From UHGV virus genome UHGV-0221571: a stretch of 17,382 nucleotides of DNA, one strand, 5' to 3'. Source of the DNA: a virus. Under the pieces are notes generated by a model. It ran no database searches. It was given only the letters and a program-made list of their open reading frames with translations, and was not told the origin of the DNA. The position numbers and the translations under genes were made by a program. Shown in pieces: positions 2,659 through 14,302 of this stretch; position 1 is the stretch's first letter, and each line of letters begins with the position of its first letter.

Positions 2659-3069
2659 TTAGTGATTCAGGCCGTTACCGCGTCCGTCGAGAAAAACTTC
2701 CACGAGCAAATCACGGGTATAAGTGCGCTCGATGCCGCGATGCAGATATAGCCGTCCGCGTAAATTAGCTGATGCAGTCCAGGTACCATCTTTGTGTTTG
2801 ACCAGCATTCCTGGCATGACCGCACCTCGATTAACGGTCTGCGTTCCGTAATGTTGATGAACCATAAAAACTCCTGCCCGTAAGCTGGGCTGCTGAACAT
2901 ATAGAGACTTCTGCGCGTATTCAGGCGGTGGATGGCCGCCGGTTGTCATAACTAAGTCGCCTCGTTGAAGCGACTGAGGTATGAAGTGTTGAGTTGATTT
3001 CAGCTGGTCACACCGACGTTCACGCGTCCGCTTCACCCCTCGCACTCCCCGGAGCCTGCTGAAATTCAA
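2659..3069 (-). CDS. Hypothetical protein downstream of the pL-like promoter; possible N-like antiterminator (very tentative)
   Basis: The ORF begins with TTG at 3069. The first in-frame GTGs are at codons 9 and 12 and the first ATG at codon 41. An Arg-rich stretch [13 protein letters not shown] lies near the N-terminus. First ORF after the OL-like operator cluster in the leftward direction. No boxA/boxB nut site recognised. Confidence 0.3.
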
Positions 3070-3127
3070 GCTGCGGATCTAAGCGGTCATCGCAACGGTG
3101 AAGTTATAAATTTTGTGATACCAACAT

Positions 3128-3180
3128 CGATGCAATAGCATGACAATAGCAATGGCTATTGGTGTAGTCAATAGCAATTA
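3128..3180 (-). promoter_or_regulatory. OL/pL-like operator cluster with a leftward promoter
   Basis: Three copies of CAATAGCA(A) at 3133-3140, 3144-3152 and 3169-3177, plus the inverted copy GCTATTG at 3155-3161 forming CAATAGC-aatg-GCTATTG. Minus-strand -35 TTGACT (3171-3166), 17-bp spacer, -10 TATTGT (3148-3143), overlapped by the repeats. The same motif family occurs in the cI/cro intergenic region. Confidence 0.4.
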
Positions 3181-3410
3181 GTATTGATAATGTTTGATAT
3201 ACTTGTTCTGATTGATAATTAAATGAATTTTTATAAAAAAGAGTATGAAGACTTATTGGTGTGGCTGAAATTTGTACAGCTTTAATGTGCCTCGTGACAG
3301 AGGGGCATCGGGTTGTGGTGAGCTCGGTAGGTTGGCAGCAAATTTAATCGAATATTGGTAGTCTGAGTTCTTATGTGTATTTTTTTAGTCAGTTGCTAAA
3401 TGATACATAA

Positions 3411-3450
3411 ATGACTTATTAGCCCCGCCATCGCTTTGTACGGGGCGTTT
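3411..3450. terminator. Hairpin terminator directly downstream of the SIR2-like gene (tImm-like position)
   Basis: Stem GCCCCG (3412-3417) / CGGGGC (3431-3436) with a 13-nt loop. T-rich run GTTTATTTAATTTA on the plus side; a moderately U-rich tail on the minus side. Confidence 0.45.
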
Positions 3451-3452
3451 AT

Positions 3453-5060
3453 TTAATTTATCTTTTCAACATTTCCATGAATCAACAAGTCGTAGGCAAG
3501 AAATAGTTTCCTATACTGGGTTTTTAAATTGTCAACGTCGCATGTCTTGAATTGAACAAACGCTTCTTTTTTAACATAATCTTCAATCTCCTCTTTGGGG
3601 ATATTTTTTATGTTCTTAATGACTATAGACAATTCTTTGTACTTTTTGAACTTTGCATCCTTTATATCTTTGATGTTGGTGTAAATTTTATTTGCATTGA
3701 TTTTATCTAAGGTGATTTTATTGAGCAAGTCGTCTAGTTTTCCGTGGCGTTCAATGCGTTGATTTAGTTTTAACACATATTTAGCTGGCAAACTTAACTC
3801 TTTCAAATTACATGAGGTTATAGTTTTTGAAAATGGAAGTTGTAATGAGTTTACTGAACCTAATATGAAATCTATGGCTAATTTATTAGATATTTCATTT
3901 TTATTAAATAAGTAGTCTTCAAGATAATTTATTTCTTTAACTTGTGTGAATACATACTTTTTATCGCCTAGAGCAACAACTAAATTTTTTCCTTGTTTAA
4001 CACTTTCTTCAAGTCTGTCTAAGTCAGAAGGTGAAACCAATAGAGTATCTAAGTGCCCTTTTTCACCCTCATTAATGATAAGTGTTTTAATGGCTCTTTG
4101 ATACCTTAAAACATCATAAGGTGAGAGCCCTTCATCAACAGCACTGATCTCATCATAGATCTGTTTATAGTTATCTGTTTTAACAGATGTATATGTAATT
4201 TGTAGCTGTTGATCGGTAATCTGTTTTGGTACTACTTCCTGTTCATTCTCTTTATATTCAATCAAAATTATTCTTTCAGCTGATTTTCGACCATCTTCTC
4301 TAGGTAGTTGTGAGGAAAAATCAGAAAGAAGTTTCTTTACATTCCTGTCAGTTAAAGAATATCCAAGAAAAACTATTGGATTTTTAATCATGTTAGATAG
4401 TATCTTGGCACTAATGAGTATAGATTTGTTGTCATATTTTTCGTAATCATCTTTATTTATGATTATTGAGTGTGGATCCTTTATATCACCATGTATTTTG
4501 TATAACTCACTCCAGCCAATAGTATCTTCGAAAAAACCATTATTTCCAATATAGAGTTTTGGAGTTACATTTTGCTCTTGAAGTAAATTTTCTATGAAAG
4601 CATCATAATTTGTAGTGATGATTATCTTGGCCTTTTTTATTAATGTTTTAAATGATGCTAATTCATCAAGATTTACATCCTTTCTGATTGTGTTATTAGA
4701 AAATCTTTGGCATATGGCGTATTTAAATGGTGAAATATCTTCACTAAAAACCCTCTTGGCATCTAGTCCATTTAATTTTAATTTGCCAGTCCTAAACAAT
4801 AGATTGTAATCATTTTCAATTTTACTTGCTGCCTCTGTATAAATCTTATGATCGATATCATTATCACTGTTATTTTTATGTGATTCTTTTATTGTTAAAA
4901 GATAACTATAGAAATCATTTGTGGGATTTGTTATTTTCCAATACTCGTTTAATAGCTCTTCCCACGTTGGGTAGTTCTCTAAATATCTTTTTGAAATGCC
5001 TGAGCCAATAAAGACTATTGGGTAATTTTTGAATTCAAAATTTTTTTTTGACATATCCAT
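3453..5060 (-). CDS. SIR2-like (defense-type SIR2_2) NADase-domain protein with an uncharacterised ~270-aa C-terminal domain
   Basis: 535-aa ATG-initiated ORF with AAGG 5 nt upstream. Motifs GSGIS (res 19-23), TTNYD (149-153), KIHGD (188-192) and FLGYSLTD (231-238) match the conserved blocks of defense-associated SIR2 domains such as ThsA. Visibly AT-rich relative to its flanks. Same strand as, and directly downstream of, the repressor. Confidence 0.75.
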   Translation of the reverse strand: MDMSKKNFEFKNYPIVFIGSGISKRYLENYPTWEELLNEYWKITNPTNDFYSYLLTIKESHKNNSDNDIDHKIYTEAASKIENDYNLLFRTGKLKLNGLDAKRVFSEDISPFKYAICQRFSNNTIRKDVNLDELASFKTLIKKAKIIITTNYDAFIENLLQEQNVTPKLYIGNNGFFEDTIGWSELYKIHGDIKDPHSIIINKDDYEKYDNKSILISAKILSNMIKNPIVFLGYSLTDRNVKKLLSDFSSQLPREDGRKSAERIILIEYKENEQEVVPKQITDQQLQITYTSVKTDNYKQIYDEISAVDEGLSPYDVLRYQRAIKTLIINEGEKGHLDTLLVSPSDLDRLEESVKQGKNLVVALGDKKYVFTQVKEINYLEDYLFNKNEISNKLAIDFILGSVNSLQLPFSKTITSCNLKELSLPAKYVLKLNQRIERHGKLDDLLNKITLDKINANKIYTNIKDIKDAKFKKYKELSIVIKNIKNIPKEEIEDYVKKEAFVQFKTCDVDNLKTQYRKLFLAYDLLIHGNVEKIN

Positions 5061-5166
5061 ATACCTTAAGCTCTGCTTGAAACATCCATTCTATAAATTA
5101 TGAGGATGTCAGCATGTCTCACCAAAACATCATCTGGTTATCTTGATGAAATCTGTCATTAATAAT

Positions 5167-5859
5167 CTACCCATGTTTTCTATATGTCTGTGGCATGCTC
5201 CCAATAACTTTCCCAAATATAAATACCCGATTCATTTCGTCTTTTTCGATCGGGTCCCACGGTGAGTAGCTCTTGTTATCAGAGATAACCAGCAGCTTAT
5301 CCTTCATCATTTGCAGGCGCTTTACATGGGCTGTGTCGTCGTACAGAAACGCATAGATACCATCACCGTCGAAAGATTTAACAGTGATATCAACGAACAG
5401 AAGATCACCTGGTTCGATCGTTCCTGACATGCTGTCACCGCGTACGTTAATGATGCGGATATTTTCTGCCTTCCTGCCATCGAACATGTGACGAGCATCG
5501 TCAAACGAGTACTCAACCGAGCGTAGGACTTCTACAAACTCACGGTTGATGACACCCGGCCCAGCACTGACTTCTATATCAAGAACGTCAATTTTGAAGT
5601 ATTTGGAATGGTTGACAGCAGGCTTCCCTGATTGTTGACCGTCATTTCTCATCGGGCCTATGCCTGATGAGAGCCACTCTGTTCGAACACCCAATGCATT
5701 AGCTATTTCAACAATTTTTGTTGAGCCGCGTGCGTTGCCGCTTGTCAGTCTCCAGATTGTGGGTTGAGCTACGCCAGACGCCTTTGCAAGAGCGCCTTGA
5801 GACATTCCAGATTGTTCCATCGCTAGGTTTAAGCGATCAGCAAGAGTTTCTTTTTTCAT
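5167..5859 (-). CDS. CI-like prophage repressor (HTH N-terminus, S24/LexA-like autocleavage C-terminus)
   Basis: HTH region ...MSQGALAKASGVAQPTIWRL... and C-terminal S24 motifs (VRGDSMSGTIEPGDLLFVD, ...HVKRLQ...). The track ORF starts at TTG 5895; I place the start at ATG 5859 (MKKETLADRL...), which sits right after a -10-like TATAAA, i.e. a near-leaderless arrangement like lambda pRM. Confidence 0.85.
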   Translation of the reverse strand: MKKETLADRLNLAMEQSGMSQGALAKASGVAQPTIWRLTSGNARGSTKIVEIANALGVRTEWLSSGIGPMRNDGQQSGKPAVNHSKYFKIDVLDIEVSAGPGVINREFVEVLRSVEYSFDDARHMFDGRKAENIRIINVRGDSMSGTIEPGDLLFVDITVKSFDGDGIYAFLYDDTAHVKRLQMMKDKLLVISDNKSYSPWDPIEKDEMNRVFIFGKVIGSMPQTYRKHG

Positions 5860-5865
5860 AAGTTT

Positions 5866-5965
5866 TAATTTATACGCTTGCGTATTGATGGTCAAAACAC
5901 GTTTTGCTATTGATTGGATTAATACGCATTGCTATTATCCATTCATTGCAATACCAATAGGAATT
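5866..5965. promoter_or_regulatory. OR-like divergent promoter/operator region (pRM-like leftward, pR-like rightward)
   Basis: Perfect palindrome ATACGC-tt-GCGTAT (5872-5885) lying between a minus-strand -35 TTGACC (5895-5890) and -10 TATAAA (5874-5869). Plus-strand -35 TTGATT (5910-5915), 17-bp spacer, -10 TATTAT (5933-5938). TTGCTATT(G) copies at 5904-5912 and 5929-5936, 25 bp apart, overlap these elements. ATACGC half-site again at 5922-5927. Confidence 0.5.
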
Positions 5966-5969
5966 GATA

Positions 5970-6197
5970 ATGACAAATCAAACCATTCAACTCGCAATCA
6001 GTATTACAGGTAGTCAAAAACGACTGGCAGATCTATGCGGTGTAGCCCAGCCCACTGTTTGGCGTTGGCTACACGGTGGCGGAATTGATGCCCGCTATGT
6101 AATGAAAATTGTCTCAGCCACTGGTGGAAAGATTAAACCAGCAGATATTCGTCCCGACCTTGCACCATTGTTTAACGCGAGTAATTCTGCCGCCTAA
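5970..6197 (+). CDS. Cro-like HTH regulator
   Basis: 75-aa ORF from ATG 5970 with AGGA 7 nt upstream. HTH ...RLADLCGVAQPTVWRWLHGG..., sharing the GVAQPT(I/V)WR recognition-helix motif with the divergent repressor. Confidence 0.8.
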   Translation: MTNQTIQLAISITGSQKRLADLCGVAQPTVWRWLHGGGIDARYVMKIVSATGGKIKPADIRPDLAPLFNASNSAA

Positions 6198-6221
6198 ACT
6201 GCGGCGTTAACTGATAAGGCA

Positions 6222-6767
6222 ATGACTATGCAACCACTTACATACCAACAGACTAGCGGATTTAGCCCGACTGCGGTGATAAATCGTTCTCAAATAAAAC
6301 AGGTGCCAGGCCACGAAAAAATCCGTGATGCCGTTCGCGCGTGGTCGGCTGCAGATAATCAGGATGTTGTTGCCGCACTCATTGTGAATGAGTATCGGGA
6401 GCAGGGCGGCGGCACCATCGATTTCCCTGATGATGTCAGCCGTGCACGCCAGAAGCTGTTCCGCTTCCTCGATAACAAATTCGATTCTGAAAAATACCGA
6501 AATAACGTGCGTGAACTGACCCCGGCAATTCTGGCGGTACTACCGCTGGAATATCGCGGTTACCTGGTTGAGCAGGATAGCTTCATGGCCAGGTTGGCTG
6601 AAATGGAAAAGGAACTCAGTGAGGCAAAACAGGCTGTCATTCTCAACGCACCACGCCACCAGAAACTGAAGGAAATTAGTGAAGGTATTGTATCGATGTT
6701 TCGTGTGGACCCAGATCTGGCTGGTCCATTGATGGCGATGGTTACTACCATGCTGGGGGCGATATGA
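6222..6767 (+). CDS. YdaT-like protein (functional CII analog in Rac-type immunity regions)
   Basis: 181-aa ORF immediately after the cro-like gene. Motifs EYREQGGG and LTPAILAVLPLEYR resemble the YdaT family as I recall it. Start could be 6222 or the ATG at 6228. Confidence 0.5.
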   Translation: MTMQPLTYQQTSGFSPTAVINRSQIKQVPGHEKIRDAVRAWSAADNQDVVAALIVNEYREQGGGTIDFPDDVSRARQKLFRFLDNKFDSEKYRNNVRELTPAILAVLPLEYRGYLVEQDSFMARLAEMEKELSEAKQAVILNAPRHQKLKEISEGIVSMFRVDPDLAGPLMAMVTTMLGAI

Positions 6768-8468: not shown

Positions 8469-9053
8469 ATGAACAAGAAATACACGTTGATCTAAGCGGA
8501 TCCGCCCTGGACGTACGAGGATAAATGCAATTCTGGTAAGCGTGGCACCGGGCATAAATACTTGGTTATGACGGTGCAGGATATCTGCTGGCTGCCAGTA
8601 AGGGAGCGGGTTGCAGAAAGCTGCCAGCTGGCGATGTGGTGGTTGCCAACTCAAACGTTCGAGGCGATGAAAGTCGTCGATGCCTGGGGATTTCGCCTGA
8701 TCACAATGAAAGGTTTCACTTGGGATAAAACCTACCCGAAGCAAACTGACAAATCGGCGATGGGAATGGGACACCTGATCCGGGCGAACCGTGAAGATTG
8801 TCTTTTCGCGGTAAAGGGTAAGCGGGCACCACAGCAGGACGCCTCGATCATCCAGCACTACACCTCGCCGCGACATGAGCACTCACGTAAACCAGACTGC
8901 GTGCGTGAAATGCTGGTTCGGTTGCTGGGTAATCTTCCACGTATTGAGCTCTTTGCGCGTAAATCCTCCCACGGTTTCGACGTATGGGGAAACAAGTGTG
9001 ATTCGCCAACCGTATCATTAAGCCCGGCCCGAGTTACTGATGTTTATTCTTAA
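8469..9053 (+). pseudogene. MT-A70-type DNA N6-adenine methyltransferase interrupted by an in-frame stop at codon 9
   Basis: ATG 8469 gives MNKKYTLI, then TAA (8493-8495), then in frame ADPPWTYEDKCNSGKRGTGHKYLVMTVQDICWLPV...EHSRKPD...ELFARKSSHGFDVWGNK. The stop sits where this family has a conserved Tyr (IYADPPW). The track ORF (8562 onward) starts with TTG and lacks the DPPW motif. Confidence 0.6.
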
Positions 9054-9264: not shown

Positions 9265-10296
9265 ATGTCCTCGAATATTTTATCTGGTGAAAAAGTAATC
9301 AATAAAATTGCTGAAAAGTTGAGCGATTATAAATATCCTCCGGCTGAAGGTATGAACTCTGAACATGTCAGCAAATGGATTAAGCAATTTGCAGTGGAGG
9401 ATAGACGATTTATCTTAGATGAAACGCTTTATCTACTTAATGCAGGTTACCTATCCGAAAGTCAATATCAACGAAAAATAAAAGCCATTGCAAGAAGTGA
9501 AAAGAACGCGAAATTCTTCAGATATGCAGGTTTTTTAGATATTCAAAAAAAAGGTTCTAGTCAGAAGGAATTGCTTAAATCTCTTTATGAAACAGTAGGG
9601 ATCAAATTTAACATCGTTACTGAATCATCAACTCAAGATGAAGTAAATAAATTTGATACATTTGTATATATTGATGATGTGTCGTTTTCAGGAGAAAAGG
9701 CCATCAAATCGATAAGTAATTTTGTTTTAAAATTTAATTTAAGAGATATTAAATTCAATGTATATTTTTTTTCATCTCATACGTTATCTGACTATAATAT
9801 AAAAAGACGATTAGAATATATTTTTAAGGATAGAAACATTTTTGTACACGTGAAGAATGGTGGTATGCGTGAGGTTGAAAACCGAAAAAGTCGTTCTGCT
9901 CAATCAGGTGTTTTCTGGCCAAGGAAATATAGTGTAGATACTCCCGAGAAATTCGAGGAGTGTGAGCTTTACAAAGGCGTATTCAGAGATGGATATGCCT
10001 CTTCTGATAGTTTTAGAAATGAAGCCTCAAGGGATCGTTTCGAATCTATCCTTACTAAAGTCGGCTTTAATATCTTGCTGCACAGGAAAACCCCTAGTGA
10101 GGTGCTCAAACCTCTAGGTTTTTCTACTTTTGACGGTTTGGGTTTTGGGGGAACAACATTTACTTATCGAAATTGCCCGAATAATGTGCCGCTGGCTTTT
10201 TGGTGGGGAGATTATGAACCAACAGGTGCTCCCGCATTGGACTGCTGGTATCCACTAATGAAGCGGAATGGGTATAATGAGTGGTATGAGCTATAG
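9265..10296 (+). CDS. Hypothetical 343-aa protein, AT-rich cargo gene; possible PRTase-type nucleotide-binding motif
   Basis: ATG 9265 with AAGGAA upstream in an AT-rich intergenic region. The stretch TFVYIDDVSFSGEK (res 132-145) resembles the PRPP-binding signature of type I phosphoribosyltransferases. No other family recognised. Translationally coupled to the NADAR gene. Confidence 0.6.
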   Translation: MSSNILSGEKVINKIAEKLSDYKYPPAEGMNSEHVSKWIKQFAVEDRRFILDETLYLLNAGYLSESQYQRKIKAIARSEKNAKFFRYAGFLDIQKKGSSQKELLKSLYETVGIKFNIVTESSTQDEVNKFDTFVYIDDVSFSGEKAIKSISNFVLKFNLRDIKFNVYFFSSHTLSDYNIKRRLEYIFKDRNIFVHVKNGGMREVENRKSRSAQSGVFWPRKYSVDTPEKFEECELYKGVFRDGYASSDSFRNEASRDRFESILTKVGFNILLHRKTPSEVLKPLGFSTFDGLGFGGTTFTYRNCPNNVPLAFWWGDYEPTGAPALDCWYPLMKRNGYNEWYEL

Positions 10297-10897
10297 ATTA
10301 TATCCGCTACAGAACACAGTTTCCTTCAGGAAAACCACCGAAAAATGGGGGGGGCTTTCCAACATGGCTAAAGGATATCCATTGTTAATCAATGGGTTGC
10401 CTATTCAATCAAGTGAAATCCTTTACCAAGCATGCCGATATCCAGACTATCCGGATATACAAAAGGCCATCATTACTCAAGGAAACCCCTATGAAGCCAA
10501 GCAGACCGCAAGATCGTTTGAATCCAAAACTCGCGCAGGATGGGATAAGAATCGAGTTTCGATTATGAAGTGGTGTGTATGCGTAAAATTATGCCAGAAC
10601 TGGGATACGTTCTTTGCGCTGTTAGACAGTACAGGCGACCATTTCATCGTGGAACACTCAGAGAAGGACCAATTCTGGGGTGCCAGTAAAGACCCAGAAG
10701 GTAACTATTATGGTATGAACGTATTAGGGCGAATTCTCATGGACGTGAGAGGGGTTGCTAGGAAAAAGGGGGCTGATGGGTTTGCAACAATACCATCGCT
10801 ATCTTTGGACAAATTTTTTCTCCTAGGCGAAAGAATTAAAGATGTAACATTTGTAGAGCCAACGCCTGGAGCAGGGCAAAGTTTATCCTTGTTTTAG
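10268..10897 (+). CDS. NADAR-domain (YbiA-like) protein
   Basis: Matches to the NADAR/YbiA blocks: GGLSNMA, INGLPIQSSEILYQACRY, AGWDKNRVSIMKWCVCVKLCQNWDTFFALLDSTGDHFIVEHSEKDQFWGA...GNYYGMNVLGRILMDVR. Start uncertain (ATG 10268, 10277 or 10286); all overlap the upstream gene. Confidence 0.8.
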   Translation: MGIMSGMSYRLYPLQNTVSFRKTTEKWGGLSNMAKGYPLLINGLPIQSSEILYQACRYPDYPDIQKAIITQGNPYEAKQTARSFESKTRAGWDKNRVSIMKWCVCVKLCQNWDTFFALLDSTGDHFIVEHSEKDQFWGASKDPEGNYYGMNVLGRILMDVRGVARKKGADGFATIPSLSLDKFFLLGERIKDVTFVEPTPGAGQSLSLF

Positions 10898-11157
10898 CGT
10901 TCCATCTGGGGCATTTTCTTCCATAAATTAACTGGCGTACCTCCCTCGGCGTTTTTTTGTTGCCATAAAAGGTTTTTGATTTTCTATAATCAACCAGCCA
11001 TAATCATGTCACCGGAGCCTGAACAACTCCGGTGACTTCTGCGCTAAACGGGGACGTTTATGCGCACATACAATCTAAACTCTCTTCTCCCGCCACAGAT
11101 GCAGAAATGCACCTGCGATTTTTTGCATCCAGCGTTTGACCTCTGCGGAGGTGAAGC

Positions 11158-13219: not shown

Positions 13220-14302
13220 TTAGAACTGGTAAACCATACCTACAGCAACGATATCATCGGTAGCAACGCCAGATGCTTTCGTGAAATCGCTCTTATCAAT
13301 CAGGTTGATTTTGTAGTCAACAAAAGTGGACATATTTTTGTTGAAGTAATAGGTTGCACCTACATCAACATATTCAACCAGGTCCTGATCACCCCAAACA
13401 CCCAAGTCTTTTCCTTTAGAATGCAGGTAAGCAACGGATGGACGCAGGCCGAAGTCGAACTGATATTGTGCAACAGCTTCGAAGTTTTGTGCTTTGTTGG
13501 CAATATGGTTATTACCAAAAACAGTCATGTTCTGGGTTTCAGAATAGGTGGTGGCCAGATAGATGTTGTTCGCATCATATTTCAGACCAGCTGCCCATAC
13601 TTCAGCATTTTGACCAGAAGCATTCAGACCGTTGTTACCGTAGATAACCTGATTATTAGTGCGATCAGATTTAGCATAGGTTGCACCCACGCCGAATCCT
13701 TCATACTCATAAGTAGTTGAGAAACCGAAACCATCGCCATTAGCTTCAGTTACTTCATTTCGGTCATTTTTGCCCTGATACTGAGCTGCAAAGTTCAGGC
13801 CATCAACCAGACCAAAGAAGTCGTTGTTACGATAAGTTGCAACACCTGTGGTGCGACCAGTCATGAATACATCTGTTTGGGTCCAGGTATCGCCACCGAA
13901 TTCTGGCAGAACGTCAGTCCACGCACCGATGTCGTATGCTACACCGTAGTTACGGCCGTAATCGATTGAGCCGTAGTCACCGAATTTCAGGCCTGCAAAT
14001 GCAAGACGGGTTTTGTCTTTGGAGGAACCTTGAGATTCAGCGCGGTTGCCTTTGAATTCATATTCCCACTGACCGAAACCAGTCAGTTGATCGTTGATTT
14101 GGGTTTCACCTTTGAAGCCAAGACGGGCATAAGTAGTATCACCATCATCTGCATCATTAGAGGAGAAGTAGTGCTTAGCATTAACTTTCCCGTACAGATC
14201 CAGCTTGTTACTGTCTTTATTATAAATTTCAGCTGCCTGAGCAGACATCGCCATCAGTACTGATGCAGCTACAGCAGAAATTGCCACTGTTAATTTTTTC
14301 AT
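13220..14302 (-). CDS. nmpC: Outer-membrane general porin (OmpC/OmpF/PhoE family), prophage NmpC/Lc-type
   Basis: 360-aa product with signal peptide [23 protein letters not shown]|AEIYNK and C-terminal ...VAVGMVYQF ending in Phe. Typical porin sequence throughout. Sits between Q and the lysis genes as in DLP12. Confidence 0.9.

Follow-up and report, generated by a model that had tools for sequence, protein, structure and literature searches.

Organization of the repressor-cro locus

The window, by which we mean the whole 17,382-nt stretch of DNA that was analyzed, belongs to a DLP12-like prophage located at argU in E. coli, and the region of interest within it is the 110 bp (5860-5969) separating two divergently oriented regulatory genes. 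On the left is a 230-aa cI-type repressor gene (5167..5859, minus strand), whose product combines an N-terminal HTH with a C-terminal S24 autopeptidase (Pfam HTH_3 and Peptidase_S24, E 1e-18; PHROG transcriptional repressor/CI-like). Its N-terminal domain resembles the 434 repressor (E 2e-5), with GVAQPTIWR aligning on 434 helix 3, and the protein also aligns with UmuD and contains Ala-Gly at residues 99-100, GDSM at 141, and VKRL at 179. Judged by these motifs, the repressor appears to carry both the Ala-Gly site and the Ser/Lys dyad used for autocleavage. The C-terminal domain has no close match to that of lambda cI, and therefore lambda cooperativity and looping are not transferable to this protein by homology.

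On the right is a cro-like gene (5970..6197, plus strand) encoding a 75-aa protein of the YdaS family (Pfam YdaS_toxin, 54.6 bits; PHROG transcriptional repressor) that matches Xfaso1 Cro (3bd1) and XPH1 (5w8y). These domain matches agree with an earlier note on this DNA, which had placed a repressor and a cro-like gene on either side of a control region. It had also described a recognition helix common to both proteins, GVAQPT(I/V)WR, and this block indeed occurs in both translations, as SGVAQPTIWRL in the repressor and CGVAQPTVWRW (core QPTVWR) in Cro, and falls in register in an alignment of the two proteins that has 32% identity over 65 residues. The second gene of the pR operon (6228..6767, plus strand) encodes a YdaT-family CII-like regulator (Pfam YdaT_toxin, 103.4 bits; PHROG CII-like activator) and is a distant match to the YdaT of CP-933P (8bt1, E 4e-4). 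The CP-933P-type YdaT operator TTGATTN6AATCAA has one exact match in the window, at 10976-10993, while a match with one mismatch spans the cro ATG, to be read with the distant relationship of the window YdaT to the CP-933P protein in mind.

Behind the repressor gene lies a SIR2-family gene (3453..5060, minus strand; Pfam SIR2_2; PADLOC candidate defence family PDC-S25, E 2e-235), which sits between cI and the left operators (OL), where lambda has rexAB and BTP1 has bstA. A scan of the 106-bp gap between cI and the SIR2 gene found neither a promoter nor a terminator, and by analogy with the cI-bstA operon of BTP1 the SIR2 gene is probably cotranscribed with cI from pRM.

Predicted promoters and operator sites of the intergenic region

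A consensus scan of positions 5000-6300 returned only two sigma-70-like promoters, pRM and pR, both overlapped by repeats and both defined as consensus matches at 9 of 12 positions each. The pRM-like promoter (5867..5895, minus strand) consists of TTGACC (5895-5890, read as GGTCAA at 5890-5895 on the plus strand), a 17-nt spacer, and TAAATT (5872-5867), which ends 7 nt before the repressor ATG. The same -35 had been proposed in the earlier note and stands, as does the presence of the TATAAA string that it had taken for the -10 (TTTATA at 5869-5874, its end 9 nt from the CAT/ATG at 5857-5859); as a -10, however, TAAATT is the better choice. TATAAA would leave a 15-nt spacer and lacks the final T, and the scan pairs TTGACC with TAAATT. 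With this -10, the pRM transcript would be expected to begin either with the A of the ATG (5859) or 1 nt upstream of it. Because of this expected start at or next to the ATG, and because no Shine-Dalgarno precedes the repressor gene in the window or its relatives, the cI mRNA is probably leaderless. The 7-nt distance from the -10 to the ATG is kept without indels in the relatives, in one of which TAAATT reads TAGATT. Across 19 sequences, 8 of the 10 pRM hexamer columns not covered by operators (5867-5870 and 5890-5895) are invariant, and 5860-5866 is variable but free of indels.

The rightward promoter upstream of cro was found with the strings and spacing previously described for it, namely TTGATT (5910-5915), a 17-nt spacer, and a TG-extended TATTAT (5933-5938), giving a pR-like element at 5910..5938 on the plus strand with a predicted start near A5945. 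Its -10 is invariant among the relatives, while its -35 keeps TTG but reads TTGCCN or TTGCTN in other genera. For the homologous promoters of BTP1, the equivalent predicted starts fall at ~379527 (minus strand) and ~379613 (plus strand) of D23580, for which the supplements of PMC7067206 and PMC6333337 give expression and proteome values and no start coordinates.

Read directly from the sequence, the perfect palindrome ATACGC-tt-GCGTAT is present at 5872-5885 and two copies of TTGCTATT are present at 5904-5911 (followed by G) and 5929-5936, 25 bp apart from start to start and lying over the -35 and -10 of the rightward promoter, all as the earlier note had reported. The palindrome and the repeats belong to one family of three 16-bp pseudo-palindromes with arms of the form AATA(C/G)N around a free 4-bp center. 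In the earlier note, the left arms of the middle and right sites had been overlooked. The three sites start at 5871, 5896, and 5921 and so have a period of exactly 25 bp. Site a (OR3-like, 5871..5886, TATACG-CTTG-CGTATT, 18.0 bits) covers part of the pRM -10 and the spacer, is centered at -19.5 from the predicted pRM start, and is kept in the relatives and in BTP1. Site b (OR2-like, 5896..5911, AACACG-TTTT-GCTATT, 14.4 bits) adjoins the pRM -35 and shares 2 bp with the pR -35, its center falling at -44.5 from the predicted pRM start and -41.5 from that of pR; its left arm is weaker, yet conserved. Site c (OR1-like, 5921..5936, AATACG-CATT-GCTATT, 18.4 bits) shares 4 bp with the pR -10 and is centered at -16.5 from the predicted pR start. 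All three sites overlap or abut a -10 or -35 hexamer. We consider it very probable that the region is an OR of the canonical lambdoid design, with an immunity type like that of ST104/BTP1, and its sequence indicates three sites in OR, possibly four.

A second operator set over a leftward promoter

The earlier note had suggested a motif search for palindromes of the AATAGC type. A pattern taken from OR picked out two further sites, at 3145 and 3170. A symmetrised matrix that used only the three OR sites was also run over the 17.4-kb window, where the best other matches were 3145-3160 (16.7 bits), 3170-3185 (14.2 bits), and 5950-5965 (13.3 bits), with no further strong matches elsewhere in the window. 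In simulated Markov-1 windows, matches at ≥14.16 bits occurred at 0.064 per window, and a pair spaced by 25 bp appeared in 0 of 1000. The first two matches, OL1 (3145..3160, AATAGC-AATG-GCTATT, with perfectly inverted arms) and OL2 (3170..3185, AATAGC-AATT-AGTATT), are 25 bp apart and lie over a leftward pL-like promoter (3143..3171, minus strand; TTGACT-17-TATTGT with a TG extension), which was the sole promoter-like site in a consensus scan of 2850-3500. The centers of OL1 and OL2 fall at -16.5 and -41.5 from the predicted pL start (~3136), and thus pL is positioned relative to OL2 and OL1 just as pR is relative to sites b and c. By sequence and geometry, the sites at 3145 and 3170 and the leftward promoter beneath them are OL/pL. 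The half-site offered in the earlier note, AATAGC/GCTATT with ATACG variants, turned out to be what these five strong sites have in common.

The window OL has only two strong sites vs three in many relatives, and at the position of the relatives' OL3 (~3190-3205) the window sequence is degenerate. A search with Rfam of the pL leader, which lacks N, and of the sequence around OL returned no put-like or other known RNA at gathering score and chance-level matches only at a relaxed threshold; the fold of the pL leader has a z of -0.96.

Conservation of the operators among related prophages

A survey of 5426 complete E. coli genomes located the OR, which is unannotated in RefSeq, in 719. Near-identical versions exist in prophages of at least 10 other enterobacterial genera, and the OR is present in Salmonella phages BTP1 and ST104 as well. 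For comparison, 18 loci from relatives in other enterobacterial genera were examined. Among these 18, operator-arm columns were invariant at 31 of 36 positions vs 0 of 30 for other intergenic columns (Fisher p = 6e-14, an internal contrast rather than a probability of function, since the relatives share descent and the arms partly coincide with promoter hexamers). Thus, it is the operator arms, and not the spacers, that are conserved across genera. Even at site b, substantial variation is limited to 5905, with 5898-5899 differing in one relative. The full a/b/c triple on its 25-bp grid is present in 17 of the 18 loci, as well as in E. coli phage 4A7 and BTP1; in the remaining locus (L019), site c alone passes the cutoff. 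The OL cluster is similarly widespread, being found in 16 of the 18 (it is absent from L013 and L017) and in 4A7, which has both the OR sites and the OL cluster. The 25-bp period pointed out in the earlier note therefore recurs at the separate OL and in 20 related loci. On a finer scale, among 40 OR haplotypes (from 79 loci with identical Cro), recurrent SNPs cluster at 5913-5920 and 5939-5949, and those elsewhere are scattered.

A candidate fourth operator and other readings of the region

The third-best of the other matrix matches in the window, box 4 (5950..5965, plus strand; AATAC-CAATA-GGAATT, 13.3 bits), lies within the OR region itself, 29 bp from site c and at approximately +6 to +21 of the predicted pR transcript, where it spans the cro Shine-Dalgarno AGGA. 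Columns 5950-5954 and 5959-5965 are invariant, while 5955-5958 are free. A second copy lies on the OL side (3214..3229, plus strand; GATAATTAAATGAATT), although its left arm is degenerate in the window. We looked for this arrangement in 21 sources, comprising the window, 4A7, BTP1, and the 18 other-genus loci, and 20 of the 21 have the motif [AGT]ATA-N7-GAAT[AT] twice on the plus strand, with one copy on the right side of OL and another on the right side of OR. Both copies are present in 17 of the 18 other-genus loci, the exception being L018, where the motif occurs at OR only.

It is possible, though doubtful, that box 4 and its OL twin are functional operators bound by cI and/or Cro. Such a variant extends the three-site model rather than displacing it. 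The matrix score favors it, as do the operator-like pattern of conservation (arm, four free bases, arm), the doubling of the motif in nearly all sources, and the four repeats reported in the OR of CP-933P (PMC8630535). Moreover, the OL copies keep GAATT but not AGG, and therefore the motif is more than a Shine-Dalgarno. Against this, box 4 lies 29 bp rather than 25 bp from site c, the right arm AATTC deviates from AATA(C/G) at an otherwise invariant position, and the cro Shine-Dalgarno inside the OR copy accounts alone for part of its conservation. The OL copy of the relatives may also belong simply to a pR-like promoter and leader that were duplicated, and that of the window has its degenerate left arm. 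If box 4 were functional, it might for example act as a roadblock to the pR transcript, contribute extra cro autoregulation, or anchor OL-OR looping, roles that we put forward just as tentatively. Rather unlikely is a complete four-site switch in which the conserved, asymmetric AATAC-N6-GAATT over the cro ribosome binding site and its same-orientation OL twin are bound by cI and/or Cro. Were it true, the switch would include a control step absent from lambda (cro-leader roadblock or occlusion, or a looping anchor), the AATACG and AATAGC arm classes might set opposite site preferences for Cro and cI, and a widespread immunity type that includes BTP1 would be wired in a mechanistically distinct way.

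The two arm classes can also be viewed differently. P2-type C repressors read direct repeats, and on its surface the intergenic region contains one perfect palindrome and two 8-bp direct repeats. Two recognition systems could accordingly be envisioned, with the ATACG palindrome of site a serving one protein, such as Cro, and the TTGCTATT direct repeats serving the other, in place of a single family of inverted-repeat operators. The existence of two classes, AATACG and AATAGC, is in keeping with this idea, and so is their distribution at site a, where both arms are CG-class, and at OL1, where both are GC-class. However, mixed CG/GC sites are common, examples being site c and, in relatives, the OL sites. 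In addition, the left arms AACACG (site b) and AATACG (site c) are as invariant as the TTGCTATT halves opposite them, and OL1 (AATAGC-N4-GCTATT) has perfectly inverted arms. The proteins argue in the same direction, as cI and Cro have the same recognition helix, which is changed jointly in HK639, and the repressor N-terminal domain belongs to the 434-like class, whose members bind as dimers to inverted half-sites. We therefore regard two separate recognition systems as very unlikely. Instead, the shared helix residues co-vary with operator sequence, suggesting that repressor and Cro read the same operators; in SaltyDalty, where the cI QPTIWR is kept, the ATAGC arms are likewise kept. Least credible of all is that the conservation merely reflects RNA polymerase contacts and untranslated-region function, with the repressor acting elsewhere: all three sites do overlap or abut promoter hexamers and short repeats arise easily in AT-rich intergenic DNA, but the invariant arms reach beyond the hexamers (5875-5886, 5896-5909, and 5921-5932), the same 16-bp family recurs with 25-bp spacing at OL, conservation is lower in the pR -35 hexamer than in the neighboring operator arm, and 17 kb of sequence lacks other strong matrix matches.

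Proposed operation of the switch

The lambdoid OR that we favor would operate as follows. The cI-type repressor and the Cro-type protein would each bind the 16-bp operators as dimers. In a lysogen, by analogy with lambda and 434, repressor would occupy sites c and b, filling the intrinsically weak site b cooperatively. From these two sites it would shut pR, and from site b it would also stimulate pRM, whose position relative to site b (-44.5) is compatible, on geometry only, with activation from a middle site. pRM would then yield a probably leaderless cI mRNA that runs on into the SIR2 defence gene. As the concentration of repressor becomes high, site a would be filled as well and pRM would be shut. 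Once the repressor has cleaved itself under RecA stimulation (Ala-Gly 99/100, S24 domain), pR would fire, and Cro would then take the same sites, presumably site a first, silencing pRM. OL1 and OL2 would govern pL with identical geometry from 2.7 kb away, a distance that allows OL-OR looping. By analogy with these phages, we infer operator binding, the order of occupancy, cooperativity, activation, the leaderless start, and looping, and the same analogy suggests that the switch would be bistable. With the refinements given above, the reading in the earlier note was upheld wherever sequence analysis could test it. The design is a known, lambda-style one in a fresh example, with a textbook architecture.

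Comparison with known systems

The lambda switch resembles that of the window in its divergent cI and cro genes and in having back-to-back promoters covered by three related pseudo-palindromic operators. The placement of the sites is also similar, with the middle site abutting the pRM -35 and touching the pR -35, and the outer sites lying over the pR -10 and in pRM. The period of the lambda sites is 24 and 23 bp, compared with 25 bp here. A second operator set lies over pL in both, ~2.7 kb off in the window and at a separation of 2317 bp in lambda (PMC2685085). Both also have a passenger defence gene behind cI, that of lambda being rexAB, and a cI without a Shine-Dalgarno, the lambda cI mRNA being leaderless (PMC8630535). 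In contrast, the window sites are 16 bp (AATAsN-N4-NsTATT) vs 17 bp in lambda and show no relationship to them in sequence. The window repressor has an N-terminal domain of the 434 kind (HTH_3) rather than of the lambda kind, Cro is all-helical and of the YdaS family, a YdaT-family protein holds the CII role, and no N gene is annotated downstream of the window pL. The window also differs in having two strong OL sites vs three and in its conserved fourth box.

A much closer likeness is seen with the ST104-type immunity group of Salmonella phages (BTP1, ST104, and SE1). The N-terminal domain of BTP1 cI (residues 1-74) is 87.8% identical to that of the window, and the helix GVAQPTIWRL is identical. 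BTP1 also has three OR sites, a 25-bp period, and an ATG-to-ATG distance of 111 bp, all as in the window; its sites TATACGCTTGAGTATT, AACACGTTTTGCTATT, and AATACTAATTGCTATT are 1, 0, and 2 bases off those of the window, with arm changes at site a (...GAGTATT) and site c (AATACT). One OL-side site and both box-4 copies are present as well. Behind BTP1 cI lies bstA, forming one operon with a single start site in lysogens, in which cro expression is low (PMC7067206). BTP1 differs in its Cro helix (GVKQPTVWR), in possessing an N gene along with a CII of the lambda type, and in being a P22-like podovirus. ST104 has been listed as its own repressor specificity type by Casjens and co-workers, with ≥92% identity of the DNA-binding domain as a rule of thumb for the same specificity (PMC2629481); at 87.8%, the window repressor falls below that value for ST104/BTP1 specificity, while its cI helix is the same and its operators are nearly so. 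In the literature searched, we found no operator map for the ST104/BTP1 immunity type and no binding, footprint, or start-site data for the window module. BTP1, a prophage of the epidemic African S. Typhimurium ST313, is spontaneously induced at an unusually high level, and its immunity system has been suggested as a possible explanation by its authors, who did not map the operators (PMC5322425). The operator and promoter map presented here, with its three OR sites, two to three OL sites, predicted starts, and candidate fourth site, makes the question of BTP1 induction directly testable. It also predicts that the same operators would control the defence gene behind cI, SIR2/PDC-S25 in the window and bstA in BTP1. 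The value of the map is thus practical, and the understanding of phage switches is unchanged by it.

CP-933P of E. coli O157:H7 (PMC8630535, PMC9986795) is similar in gene order, with a YdaS-family Cro followed by YdaT as the CII analogue, and in having divergent pRM- and pR-like promoters within a short gap (97 bp vs 110 bp in the window). Its repressor mRNA was found to be leaderless by 5'-RACE, the footprints of its repressor and YdaS overlap, and its OR contains four repeats, with OL-like sites upstream (PMC8630535). However, its repressor PaaR2 is small, lacks S24, and heads a paaA2-parE2 toxin-antitoxin operon, whereas the window repressor has 230 aa with S24 and is followed by the SIR2 gene. 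The CP-933P operator consensus, GTTTAGTAA (18-bp repeats), is likewise unrelated to the AATA(C/G)N arms of the window.

Phage 434 has a homologous repressor N-terminal domain, and its repressor and Cro share recognition-helix residues as do those of the window. In its operators, the outer arms are conserved and the center, which is not contacted, is variable; the window sites are likewise conserved in the arms and free in the center. They differ from those of the window in sequence and length (ACAA-N6-TTGT, 14 bp, vs AATAsN-N4-NsTATT, 16 bp), and its Cro belongs to another family. HK639, on the other hand, has a homologous cro (75 aa) and an annotated cII that equals the window YdaT gene in length (546 nt), together with a cI N-terminal domain that is 57.5% identical. 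Between its cI and cro lie three palindromes, spaced 24 and 25 bp apart. Its helices read SQPA(I/V)(Q/H)K in both proteins and its operators ATAACC-NN-GGTTAT, and because helices and operators differ together, HK639 represents a different immunity specificity.

Proposed operators and promoters in the cI-cro interval

The window is 100% identical to a DLP12-like prophage adjoining tRNA-Arg (argU) in E. coli strain CT29, and many other strains carry similar prophages. The prophage genes run from int to exo-bet-gam-kil and then, across a gap of 590 bp, to a SIR2-family gene and the repressor gene; rightwards follow cro, a YdaT-family gene (a CII analogue), O, P, nin-type genes, Q (quuD) and lysis genes. 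Between cI and cro lies a gap of 110 bp (5860-5969; repressor ATG, complement of 5857-5859; cro ATG at 5970), in which the earlier note had placed a lambda-like OR. All of the strings it named were found where it put them, including the palindrome ATACGCttGCGTAT (5872-5885), two copies of TTGCTATT 25 bp apart (5904-5911 and 5929-5936), and minus-strand TTGACC (5895-5890) and TATAAA (5874-5869), the latter ending 9 nt before the repressor ATG. The palindrome and the repeats belong to a single family of three 16-bp sites, spaced at exactly 25 bp from start to start: site a (5871-5886, TATACG-CTTG-CGTATT), site b (5896-5911, AACACG-TTTT-GCTATT) and site c (5921-5936, AATACG-CATT-GCTATT).

A consensus scan of 5000-6300 returned exactly two promoter-like sites. 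One is the rightward promoter already proposed, pR (TTGATT 5910-5915, 17 nt, TATTAT 5933-5938, with a TG extension), and the other is a leftward pRM-like site. The proposed pRM -35, TTGACC, was retained, whereas TATAAA is spaced only 15 nt from it; the scan instead pairs TTGACC with TAAATT (5872-5867) across a 17-nt spacer. TAAATT ends 7 nt from the repressor ATG. Because this distance is constant in all relatives and the ATG lacks a Shine-Dalgarno sequence in every one of them, the pRM transcript is probably leaderless, as in lambda and the CP-933P prophage. In the predicted geometry, sites c and b are centered at -16.5 and -41.5 from the pR start, while sites b and a are centered at -44.5 and -19.5 relative to pRM.

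A matching OL and pL

The search for AATAGC-type sites was extended across the window, as the earlier note had suggested, using a degenerate pattern derived from sites a, b and c. This recovered OL1 (3145-3160, AATAGC-AATG-GCTATT) and OL2 (3170-3185, AATAGC-AATT-AGTATT), likewise 25 bp apart. When a symmetrised weight matrix was based solely on sites a, b and c, OL1 and OL2 were the best other matches in the window (16.7 and 14.2 bits). Among 1000 Markov-1 simulated windows, matches of at least 14.16 bits occurred at 0.064 per window and pairs 25 bp apart in 0/1000. Within 2850-3500 there is a single promoter-like site, a leftward pL (3171-3143, TTGACT-17-TATTGT, TG-extended), and the two OL sites are centered -16.5 and -41.5 from its predicted start, the same offsets as sites c and b from pR. 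Given this second 25-bp pair and its pR-like promoter geometry, the window therefore holds a matching OL/pL, located 2.7 kb left of OR beyond the SIR2 gene.

The left edge of immunity-specific DNA lies near 3102; heteroimmune coliphages share segment 2860-3102 at 97-99% identity. Between the predicted pL start and kil (2866-3136, minus strand, especially 2924-2985) the annotation has no N-like gene, and a 60-nt patch of this leader also occurs, unannotated, in HK225 and phi80. The conserved segment may act in cis, for instance as a put-like antiterminator RNA; the leader had no Rfam match and its fold was not unusual (z = -0.96).

Conservation of the operators

A scan with the Cro protein, covering one genome per species, yielded 18 relatives (75-87% Cro identity) from Enterobacter, Citrobacter, Kluyvera, Raoultella, Yokenella, Scandinavium, Siccibacter, Buttiauxella, Huaxiibacter and Pseudescherichia. 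The full triple on the 25/25-bp OR grid scored in 17 of them, the exception (L019) having only site c above the cutoff. OL clusters of two to four matrix matches were present in 16/18, and these can be read as two or three sites spaced 25 bp and then 20 bp; clusters were absent from L013 and from L017, the latter having little upstream sequence. In an alignment of 19 distinct cI-ATG to cro-ATG intervals, the invariant columns numbered 31/36 in operator arms, 7/12 in operator centers and 0/30 in the rest of the intergenic DNA (Fisher p = 6e-14; since the sequences are related and the contrast is drawn inside a single alignment, this is not an independent probability). Invariant arms with freer centers are nevertheless what dimer-binding sites with non-contacted centers would be expected to show. 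Among 79 loci with identical Cro (78 IMG/VR viral contigs plus E. coli phage 4A7), there were 40 OR haplotypes, with recurrent SNPs clustered in 5913-5920 and 5939-5949. The pR -35 varies more than the adjoining operator arm, being TTGATT in the window and TTGCCN or TTGCTN elsewhere. The OR is present, unannotated, in 719/5426 complete E. coli genomes.

A fourth box

The simple three-site picture does not account for box 4 (5950-5965, plus strand, AATAC-N4-AGGAATT), which covers the cro Shine-Dalgarno and is the third-best other matrix match in the window (13.3 bits). Its conservation follows the operator pattern of arm, free center, arm. The motif [AGT]ATA-N7-GAAT[AT] was found twice on the plus strand, right of OL (3214-3229 in the window) and right of OR, in 20 of 21 scanned sources, namely the window, 4A7, BTP1 and 17 of 18 other-genus loci; the remaining locus, L018, has the OR copy only. 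Since the OL copies conserve GAATT and not AGG, box 4 is more than the cro Shine-Dalgarno. The OL copy may instead belong to a duplicated promoter and leader, as OL2 and OL3 in many relatives (L003-L008, L012, L014-L016, L018 and L019) are overlapped by a rightward pR-like TTGATA-18-TATTAA directed toward the 3' end of the cI operon; the counterpart in the window (3184-3212) is degenerate. We put box 4 forward tentatively as a candidate fourth operator, a role we consider less likely than not.

Regulators, cargo and a model of the switch

The repressor contains HTH_3 and Peptidase_S24 domains, Ala-Gly at 99-100, and GDSM and VKRL motifs. The N-terminal domain shows homology to 434 repressor and places QPTIWR on helix 3 of 434. 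Cro, a YdaS-family protein, matches the structure of Xfaso1 Cro. The recognition helix that both proteins were said to share is present in each translation (SGVAQPTIWRL in the repressor, CGVAQPTVWRW in Cro) and in register in their alignment (32% identity over 65 residues). The longest repressor ORF (242 aa) starts at a TTG (5893-5895, minus strand) that doubles as the opening trinucleotide of the pRM -35, and BTP1 is annotated in GenBank with the equivalent long ORF (726 nt). An ATG start giving 230 aa fits the 434 alignment and promoter layout better. The S24 part of the gene (5167-5618) is ~95% identical in IdasGreatGrand, Turner, PhiR47_2 and other phages that differ in the N-terminal domain and OR, placing a mosaic joint inside cI.

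Directly behind the repressor gene is the 535-aa SIR2-family gene (3453-5060, minus strand), a full-length match to the PADLOC candidate defence family PDC-S25 (E 2e-235). The consensus scan found no promoter or terminator match in the 106-bp gap between them. A terminator-like hairpin and T-run lies on the plus strand just beyond the SIR2 stop (3432-3447). Cargo in this slot varies, with an ASCH and a hypothetical gene in 4A7 and none in Enterobacter L003. Other prophage cargo (jointly 8469-9053, 9265-10897 and 13220-14302) comprises a pseudogene for an MT-A70 methyltransferase, interrupted by an internal stop, a phosphoribosyltransferase-like and NADAR gene pair (weak PADLOC matches PRTase_III-A and PDC-M42C) and a minus-strand, phage-borne ompC-like porin gene.

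Taken together, the three sites, two promoters, matching OL/pL and arm conservation support the lambda-like reading with minor corrections, and this region appears to be a real, canonical lambdoid OR. Repressor dimers on site c and the weaker site b would block pR; the weakness of site b seems intrinsic and itself conserved. Repressor at site b would also assist pRM, whose transcript probably runs on into the SIR2 gene, and at high repressor levels site a would fill and shut pRM. RecA-stimulated repressor cleavage would allow pR and pL to fire, with Cro on the same sites turning pRM off. OL-OR looping is possible, but it is not arguable from homology because the repressor C-terminal domain is not close to lambda cI.

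Comparison with known switches

The best experimentally dissected YdaS-type switch is that of CP-933P, in which 5'-RACE revealed a leaderless repressor mRNA and PaaR2 and YdaS give overlapping footprints on four repeats within 97 bp (PMC8630535). Neither the repressor nor the operators of that switch are related in sequence to those of the window. For TTGATTN6AATCAA, the YdaT operator pattern of CP-933P, there is an exact match in the gap following the NADAR gene (10976-10993; chance expectation ~0.001) and a one-mismatch match spanning the cro start codon (5964-5981), from which we draw no conclusion because the YdaT proteins of the window and of CP-933P are only distant relatives. Two natural comparisons support a link between recognition helix and operator sequence: the homologous module of phage HK639 carries SQPAIQK in cI and SQPAVHK in Cro together with three sites of the form ATAACC-NN-GGTTAT, while phage SaltyDalty keeps QPTIWR in cI and the ATAGC arms in its sites.

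The closest likeness is to the Salmonella phages BTP1, ST104 and SE1, whose repressor N-terminal domain is 87.8% identical to that of the window. The BTP1 OR has the same three sites, spacing and 111-bp ATG-to-ATG distance. A repressor specificity of its own, 'ST104', is listed by Casjens and co-workers (PMC2629481). BTP1 lysogens transcribe cI and bstA, the defence gene downstream, as a single operon with one start site, and expression of cro is low (PMC7067206); the SIR2 gene occupies the slot of bstA in BTP1 and rexAB in lambda. The BTP1 papers (PMC7067206, PMC5322425) do not mention operators, and our literature search found no operator map of the ST104/BTP1 type. The OR belongs to, or is a close neighbor of, this widespread immunity type, and the operator map and box 4 offer concrete handles on BTP1-type switches.
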